From: Tequatrovirus LF73P3
Length of the DNA stretch: 64,000 bases
Strand: one strand, 5' to 3'
Sequence record: OZ035756.1
Each line of letters starts with the position of its first letter. Within the stretch, counting starts at the first letter, position 1. The notes beneath the pieces are model-generated. The model was not told where the DNA came from and ran no database searches. It saw only the letters and a list, made by a program, of their open reading frames with translations. The position numbers were made by a program, and so were the translations under genes. This document shows positions 42,344 to 42,799 of the stretch, piece by piece.

Positions 42344-42799
42344 TTATTTTAAATCGTCTGCCCAATCGAGTTTAAGAGGTTCTTTGTATTCACGATCTAA
42401 TACGACCGGAATTTGTACATCACCGCTAAATGATAAGGGCCCAACATTATAAGACAATGTTATATGCGGTGTGTAATCATCAAAATCATGTGTAGCACCT
42501 AGTGCCCGCGCATACATGTGTCGACAGCGCAGATATTCAGAATCTAGCACAAGTACAAGAGTCGATCCATCTTGTGTTTTCCATACTTCTAAATGTCCAG
42601 AAGAAGCTACTTCAAAACTTCCGCTTGATGGAACATACGGAACATTTACTCTTGAATAACATATGGTTGAATGAATTTTTTCTCTAGGAACTGGATTAGG
42701 AACACGTAAAGAGCGCTGAAGTTCTTCCAGCGCATCAAGTGTTAATTCTGAAAACTTAGCTGCTACATAAAGACCCGTTGAAAAGTCTTTAAATTCCAT
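42344..42799 (-). CDS. 57B: 57B, 2H-phosphoesterase (Acb1-type cyclic-nucleotide phosphodiesterase)
   Basis: 151 aa; two H-x-T/S motifs ([16 protein letters not shown]) typical of the 2H family; position upstream of 57A. Confidence 0.75.

Follow-up and report, generated by a model that had tools for sequence, protein, structure and literature searches.

The question raised by gene 57B of Tequatrovirus LF73P3 is whether it encodes an intact anti-CBASS nuclease, a different enzyme built on the same fold, or a protein that has lost its function. We analysed a stretch of 64,000 nucleotides from sequence record OZ035756.1, referred to here as the window. An uninterrupted open reading frame on its minus strand (42344-42799) encodes a protein of 151 residues, with an ATG start and a TAA stop, and the T4 57B protein is matched by tblastn at 42347-42802 of the same strand. 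We identify this frame, with a probability of about 97%, as the intact acb1 (57B) of a T4-like phage, predicted to encode a 2H phosphoesterase that destroys the cyclic-nucleotide signals of CBASS. The gene is already known and its assignment is ordinary annotation, with nothing new in mechanistic terms. The window phage is a Tequatrovirus but not T4 itself, and its best 24-kb matches are ~96.6% identical.

All 151 residues of the window 57B protein are 100% identical to residues 2-152 of T4 gp57B/Acb1 (NP_049750.1, NC_000866), the founding anti-CBASS nuclease (Hobbs et al. 2022, PMC9117128). The protein matches the Pfam family PF23474, "Anti-CBASS protein Acb1", at 202.7 bits, compared with a gathering cut-off of 27 bits, with its residues 8-149 spanning the whole profile (positions 1-144 of 144). 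Acb1 is the sole family assigned, as no other Pfam family matches the protein at E<=0.1. Residues 8-148 match the Acb1 structures 7T26 and 7T27 in the PDB (E=4.1e-62). The PDB entries 9Q2G and 9Q2Y, also named 'Anti-CBASS protein Acb1', match weakly and collinearly (E=0.004-0.03). From the match to 7T26, which spans 141 residues at about two-thirds identity, we infer that the window protein adopts the compact fold named 2H phosphoesterase (PMC9117128). Phages RB32 and RB33 share 99.6% identity with the window phage over the 57B segment. The T4 identity and the family and structure matches bear out the first-pass annotation, which had proposed a counterpart of 57B/Acb1. It had also called T4 57B the prototype Acb1, which holds for the biochemistry and genetics; the crystal structures, however, come from Erwinia phage FBB1.

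Enzymes of the LigT/2H superfamily carry two H-x-T/S motifs and perform metal-independent chemistry via a cyclic phosphate intermediate. The window protein contains five histidines, only two of which lie in H-x-[ST] motifs, H43-S44-T45-I46 and H112-I113-T114-L115. The first catalytic motif, H43-S44-T45, is encoded by codons CAT TCA ACC at 42665-42673 on the minus strand and corresponds to H44 and T46 of T4. The second, H112-I113-T114, is encoded by CAT ATA ACA at 42458-42466 on the same strand and corresponds to T4 H113 and T115. The 2H signature had been described from HSTI and HITL as a pair spaced about 60 residues apart. Both motifs are present and align on Acb1, but H43 and H112 are 69 residues apart, and both motifs are of the H-x-T form. 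In the alignment with FBB1 Acb1 (7T26), HST of the window protein falls on HTT, and HIT on HIT.

The H-x-T/S motif is short, and a small protein unrelated to Acb1 could in principle have two copies by chance. For a protein with the size and composition of window 57B, ~0.4-0.75 chance matches to H-x-[ST] are expected, and the probability of at least two in 151 residues is ~0.06-0.17. The motif pair alone is therefore weak evidence, and its significance comes from homology. A chance origin of the pair is ruled out by the full-length identity to T4 Acb1 and by E-values of 1e-60 to 1e-62 to the Acb1 family and structure.

The active site of T4 Acb1 provides a residue-by-residue reference for this homology. 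Its catalytic HxT/HxT tetrad consists of H44, T46, H113 and T115, and the mutant tested was H44A/H113A (PMC9117128). Residues Y12, W74, F107 and W147 are stacking residues, with W147 placed on a nucleobase, E141 contacts adenine N6, and residues 145-152 form a C-terminal lid (PMC9117128). A script check confirmed that T4 gp57B carries the published residue types at exactly these published numbers, and that Y12, H44, T46, W74, F107, H113, T115, E141 and W147 are each kept in the window protein at position n-1. All five published nucleotide-contacting residues are thus present. The alignment with T4 Acb1, which had been suggested as a check, places the catalytic histidines of the window protein on T4 H44 and H113. 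The lid segment comprises residues 144-151, LDWADDLK, with W146 corresponding to T4 W147; it is encoded at 42347-42370 on the minus strand, as located from the sequence and from PMC9117128.

The enzymatic activity, substrate range and in vivo anti-CBASS effect of window Acb1 are predicted from published work on the identical T4 protein. During infection, the cyclase of a host CBASS system would make cyclic di- or trinucleotide signals. Acb1, as a small metal-independent 2H phosphoesterase, would bind the signals in a U-shaped pocket shut by the C-terminal lid, and would rotate and strain an adenosine, directing its 2'-OH against the neighbouring 3'-5' phosphodiester. Acid-base catalysis by the two H-x-T motifs would proceed via a 2',3'-cyclic phosphate intermediate and give a linear product (GpAp from 3'3'-cGAMP). 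Destruction of the signal ahead of CBASS effector activation would prevent abortive infection. The expected substrates are 3'3'-cGAMP, cUA, cAAA and other AMP-containing signals, whereas cGG, cA4 and the 2'-5'-linked 3'2'-cGAMP would not be cleaved.

The published data on T4 agree in substrate range. T4 Acb1 hydrolyses AMP-containing cyclic di- and trinucleotides (3'3'-cGAMP, cUA, cAAA) and rescues phage from CBASS, and it leaves cGG, cA4 and 3'2'-cGAMP intact (PMC9117128). Lysates of T4 delta-acb1 lose cGAMP hydrolysis, and the mutant has a >300-fold CBASS-dependent replication defect, which is seen only with active CBASS and not otherwise (PMC9117128). In an independent transposon screen, 57B was dispensable on K-12, but on a host expressing CBASS it was depleted (bioRxiv 10.1101/2025.11.20.689424).

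Alternatively, 57B could be a generic LigT-like enzyme of the 2H family, either an RNA ligase or a 2',3'-cyclic phosphodiesterase, that has RNA ends as its substrate, as in tRNA repair, and whose cleavage of cyclic oligonucleotides is incidental. The 2H fold is common to Acb1 and LigT-type enzymes, and 57B sits a few kb from a tRNA cluster. Database labels also point in this direction, since PHROGs assigns window 57B to phrog_755, whose older label is "RNA ligase", and many phage records, including RefSeq T4, label 57B in the same way. However, ligase activity of 57B is supported by no experiment, and the labels 'RNA ligase' and 'hypothetical protein' reflect an older, fold-based annotation, not experiment. 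The Pfam match is to the curated Acb1 family, and no family of the LigT/2_5_RNA_ligase type matches at E<=0.1. In T4, deletion of acb1 abolishes 3'3'-cGAMP hydrolysis in lysates and causes a defect that is CBASS-dependent only, and the pocket, the lid and the adenine-specific contact of E141 are specialised for cyclic di- and trinucleotides (PMC9117128). An enzyme for RNA ends is therefore very improbable here, and assignment as Acb1 is retained. For annotation, the appropriate label for the gene is acb1 (anti-CBASS nuclease), in place of the 'RNA ligase' or 'hypothetical protein' that it still carries in many close relatives.

An acb1 gene may also be present but dead or silent, like the disrupted acb1 of phage Bas43, in which case the window phage would escape Panoptes-type guards. 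These guard systems sense cyclic-nucleotide depletion (PMC13577387). Type I and type II Panoptes restrict Tevenvirinae with functional Acb1, and loss-of-function alleles of acb1, both natural and selected, occur in Tevenvirinae and allow escape, as in Bas43 (PMC13577387). The window acb1 was checked for nonsense and frameshift mutations of the Bas43 kind, and it has none. The reading frame is full length, and its product has no amino acid change relative to the active T4 Acb1. Seven codons differ from T4 57B, with all seven nucleotide differences synonymous and none non-synonymous, a pattern consistent with purifying selection acting on a functional gene. Conservation extends to the 57A junction and to the upstream genes. 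The window allele is thus not of the disrupted Bas43 kind, and we consider a dead or silent gene exceedingly improbable. The gene had been described as intact, and the complete frame from ATG to TAA, free of frameshifts and premature stops, agrees with that description.

The start of acb1 differs between the window phage and T4. The window sequence, compared with that of T4, has a TAATG junction (42797-42801, minus strand), in which the TAA stop of 57A and the ATG start of acb1 have one base in common. This arrangement suggests translational coupling. The T4 junction is GAATGATGG, which contains the TGA stop of 57A and the ATG-ATG of 57B with a 4-nt overlap. The window junction is GAATAATGG, with a TAA stop of 57A and a single ATG, as the annotated first ATG of T4 is replaced by ATA. 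Window Acb1 therefore begins at the second Met of T4 and lacks the annotated T4 N-terminal Met.

The frequencies of the two junction alleles were determined using 41-mers centred on the variable base, such that any 28-base exact seed must span this base. The window allele is present in ~310 phage records of the GenBank phage collection, including T2, and the T4 allele in ~180. The counts were taken from this collection because a scan of IMG/VR for the start-codon junction returned only 3 contigs, which are too few. The missing first ATG was considered as a possible defect and rejected, since the window form is the majority allele and is found in T2 as well; for the same reason, loss of the first Met is unlikely to matter. 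The conserved start of 57B is probably the second ATG, a small point that we draw from the allele comparison.

Searches with T4 proteins against the window (tblastn) place trna.2-trna.4, the internal-protein locus, 57B, 57A, 1, 3, 2 and 4 in T4 gene order on the minus strand, with genes 53 and 5 next in order on the plus strand. The window acb1 thus has the synteny of T4 57B: it follows genes 1 and 57A and precedes the internal-protein locus, with all of these on one strand. Gene 57A, which encodes a tail-fibre assembly chaperone, lies directly upstream of acb1 (42799-43041, minus strand; tblastn match 42802-43041). Its product matches the Pfam family PF17594 (GP57) at 164 bits and is 96% identical to T4 gp57A. 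Gene 1, encoding a dNMP kinase, is located further upstream (43041-43766, minus strand; tblastn match 43044-43766), and its product matches PF21448 (DNMK) at 354 bits and is 95% identical to T4 gp1. The open reading frame listed for gene 3 (43816-44427, minus strand) has 203 codons for amino acids and a TTG start, whereas the match to T4 gp3 (176 aa, 100% identical) is limited to 43819-44346; the real start of gene 3 is therefore likely an internal ATG.

A candidate T4-type middle promoter, composed of a MotA-box-like AATGCTTCA followed by TATAAT, is located upstream of gene 1 (43792-43817, minus strand). It was recognized purely as a consensus match, and could drive transcription of 1-57A-acb1. 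Candidate T4 late-promoter motifs, TATAAATA, identified purely by pattern matching, occur at 43397-43404 and 45756-45763. Expression of T4 57B is middle/late (bioRxiv 10.64898/2026.03.30.715471), and the cGAMP-degrading activity starts ~15 min into T4 infection (PMC9117128); the candidate middle and late motifs fit both observations. Expression of acb1 in the window phage is thus predicted from promoter-like consensus matches together with T4 transcriptomics. A generic scan for sigma-70-like promoters gave 14 matches, no excess over the 12.4 expected in shuffled sequence, so that promoter assignments stay at the level of consensus. No intrinsic terminator was found after acb1 in a generic scan. 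One sigma-70-like match (TTTACA-17 nt-TACTAT with an upstream TG; 42302-42330, minus strand) immediately follows the acb1 stop and precedes ip7. An imperfect inverted repeat, TGATGAG...CTCATCA, overlaps this match, whose sequence is near-identical in T4.

The gene that follows acb1 is different from its T4 counterpart. The T4 internal protein IPI inhibits the GmrS/GmrD restriction enzyme. No homologue of T4 IPI was found at the ipI locus downstream of acb1 (41963-42271, minus strand). The locus instead encodes a 102-aa internal head protein that shares 99% identity with phage RB15 Ip7 (Z35082) and belongs to PHROG 2667. Its N-terminus, MKTFKEFINEA, resembles the start of the window ipIII homologue, MKTYKEFIAEA. 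With Ip7 in place of IPI, the anti-defence neighbour of acb1 differs from that in T4.

Other loci in the window depart from T4 to varying degrees. The gene order between vs.8 and e (31900-33600, minus strand) is unlike that of T4 and comprises ipIII (31901-32479), a 108-aa open reading frame (32541-32867), denV (~32809-33234), and an open reading frame of ~93 aa within 33281-33577, which appears to encode a further internal protein. For T4 ipII, tblastn gave no match in the window. The tk.4 macro-domain protein (27853-28317, minus strand) matches the Pfam family Macro at 32 bits and is 58% identical to that of T4, tk.2 is 54% identical to T4, and T4 tk.1 has no match in the window, while the surrounding region is 95-99% identical at the protein level. 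The segment 27102-28317 (minus strand) looks like a locally divergent or exchanged one. Searches by tblastn gave no match in the window for the T4 homing endonuclease gene mobD (region ~23000-24000) or for the small open reading frame e.7 (~37000-37600); segB was matched at 39542-40204. T-even phages typically vary in which mobile and accessory genes they carry.

The window also contains a homologue of the vs.4/Acb2 sponge (30009-30272, minus strand), which is 96.6% identical to T4 Vs.4 and matches the Pfam family Acb2_Tad1_hairpin at 70.6 bits. Both known anti-CBASS genes of T4, acb1 and vs.4/acb2, are thus present in the window phage, ~12 kb apart. The sequence identity of its Acb1 predicts that the phage has a T4-like counter-defence. 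With acb1 and vs.4/acb2 together, the phage is predicted to be resistant to many CBASS systems and sensitive to Panoptes-type guard systems (PMC13577387). These predictions have a bearing on host-range prediction and on the choice of therapy phages.

It is also conceivable that, in addition to CBASS signals, Acb1 acts physiologically on a second substrate. Candidates are cA3 of type III CRISPR and the RNA ends bearing a 2',3'-cyclic phosphate that host anticodon nucleases generate, the latter suggested by the tRNA cluster nearby. The pairing with Ip7 instead of IPI would then make up a differently composed anti-defence island. We regard this proposal as speculative and unlikely. The second-substrate ideas are not specific to the window, and the parts concerning cA3 and Panoptes are already in the literature.

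Among known systems, the window Acb1 is closest to T4 gp57B, with which it shares all 151 residues, the catalytic tetrad, the nucleotide contacts, and the place downstream of genes 1 and 57A. It differs from T4 in the missing annotated first Met, the TAA instead of TGA stop of 57A, the seven synonymous nucleotide differences, and the downstream neighbour, which is ip7 in the window and ipI in T4. Acb1 of Erwinia phage FBB1, determined in apo form (7T26) and in complex with 3'3'-cGAMP (7T27), belongs to the same family and presumably has the same fold as the window protein. It aligns with the window protein at both H-x-T motifs, at the stacking aromatics (Y and W), and at the W of the lid. The identity of the two proteins is roughly two-thirds, as counted from the alignment, and FBB1 Acb1 has one extra residue between the motifs, reads HTT where the window protein has HST, and carries Y at the position of F107. 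The Acb1 proteins 9Q2G and 9Q2Y represent a different branch of the family with marginal similarity, in which both H-x-T motifs are nevertheless collinear with those of the window protein (HVT and HLT in 9Q2G). The LigT superfamily, comprising 2',3'-cyclic phosphodiesterases and 2'-5' RNA ligases, acts on RNA ends, whereas Acb1 acts on cyclic di- and trinucleotide immune signals. Acb2 (T4 Vs.4) has the same target as Acb1, the cyclic-nucleotide signals of CBASS, but is an unrelated protein that sequesters the signals and does not cleave them (PMC10312549).
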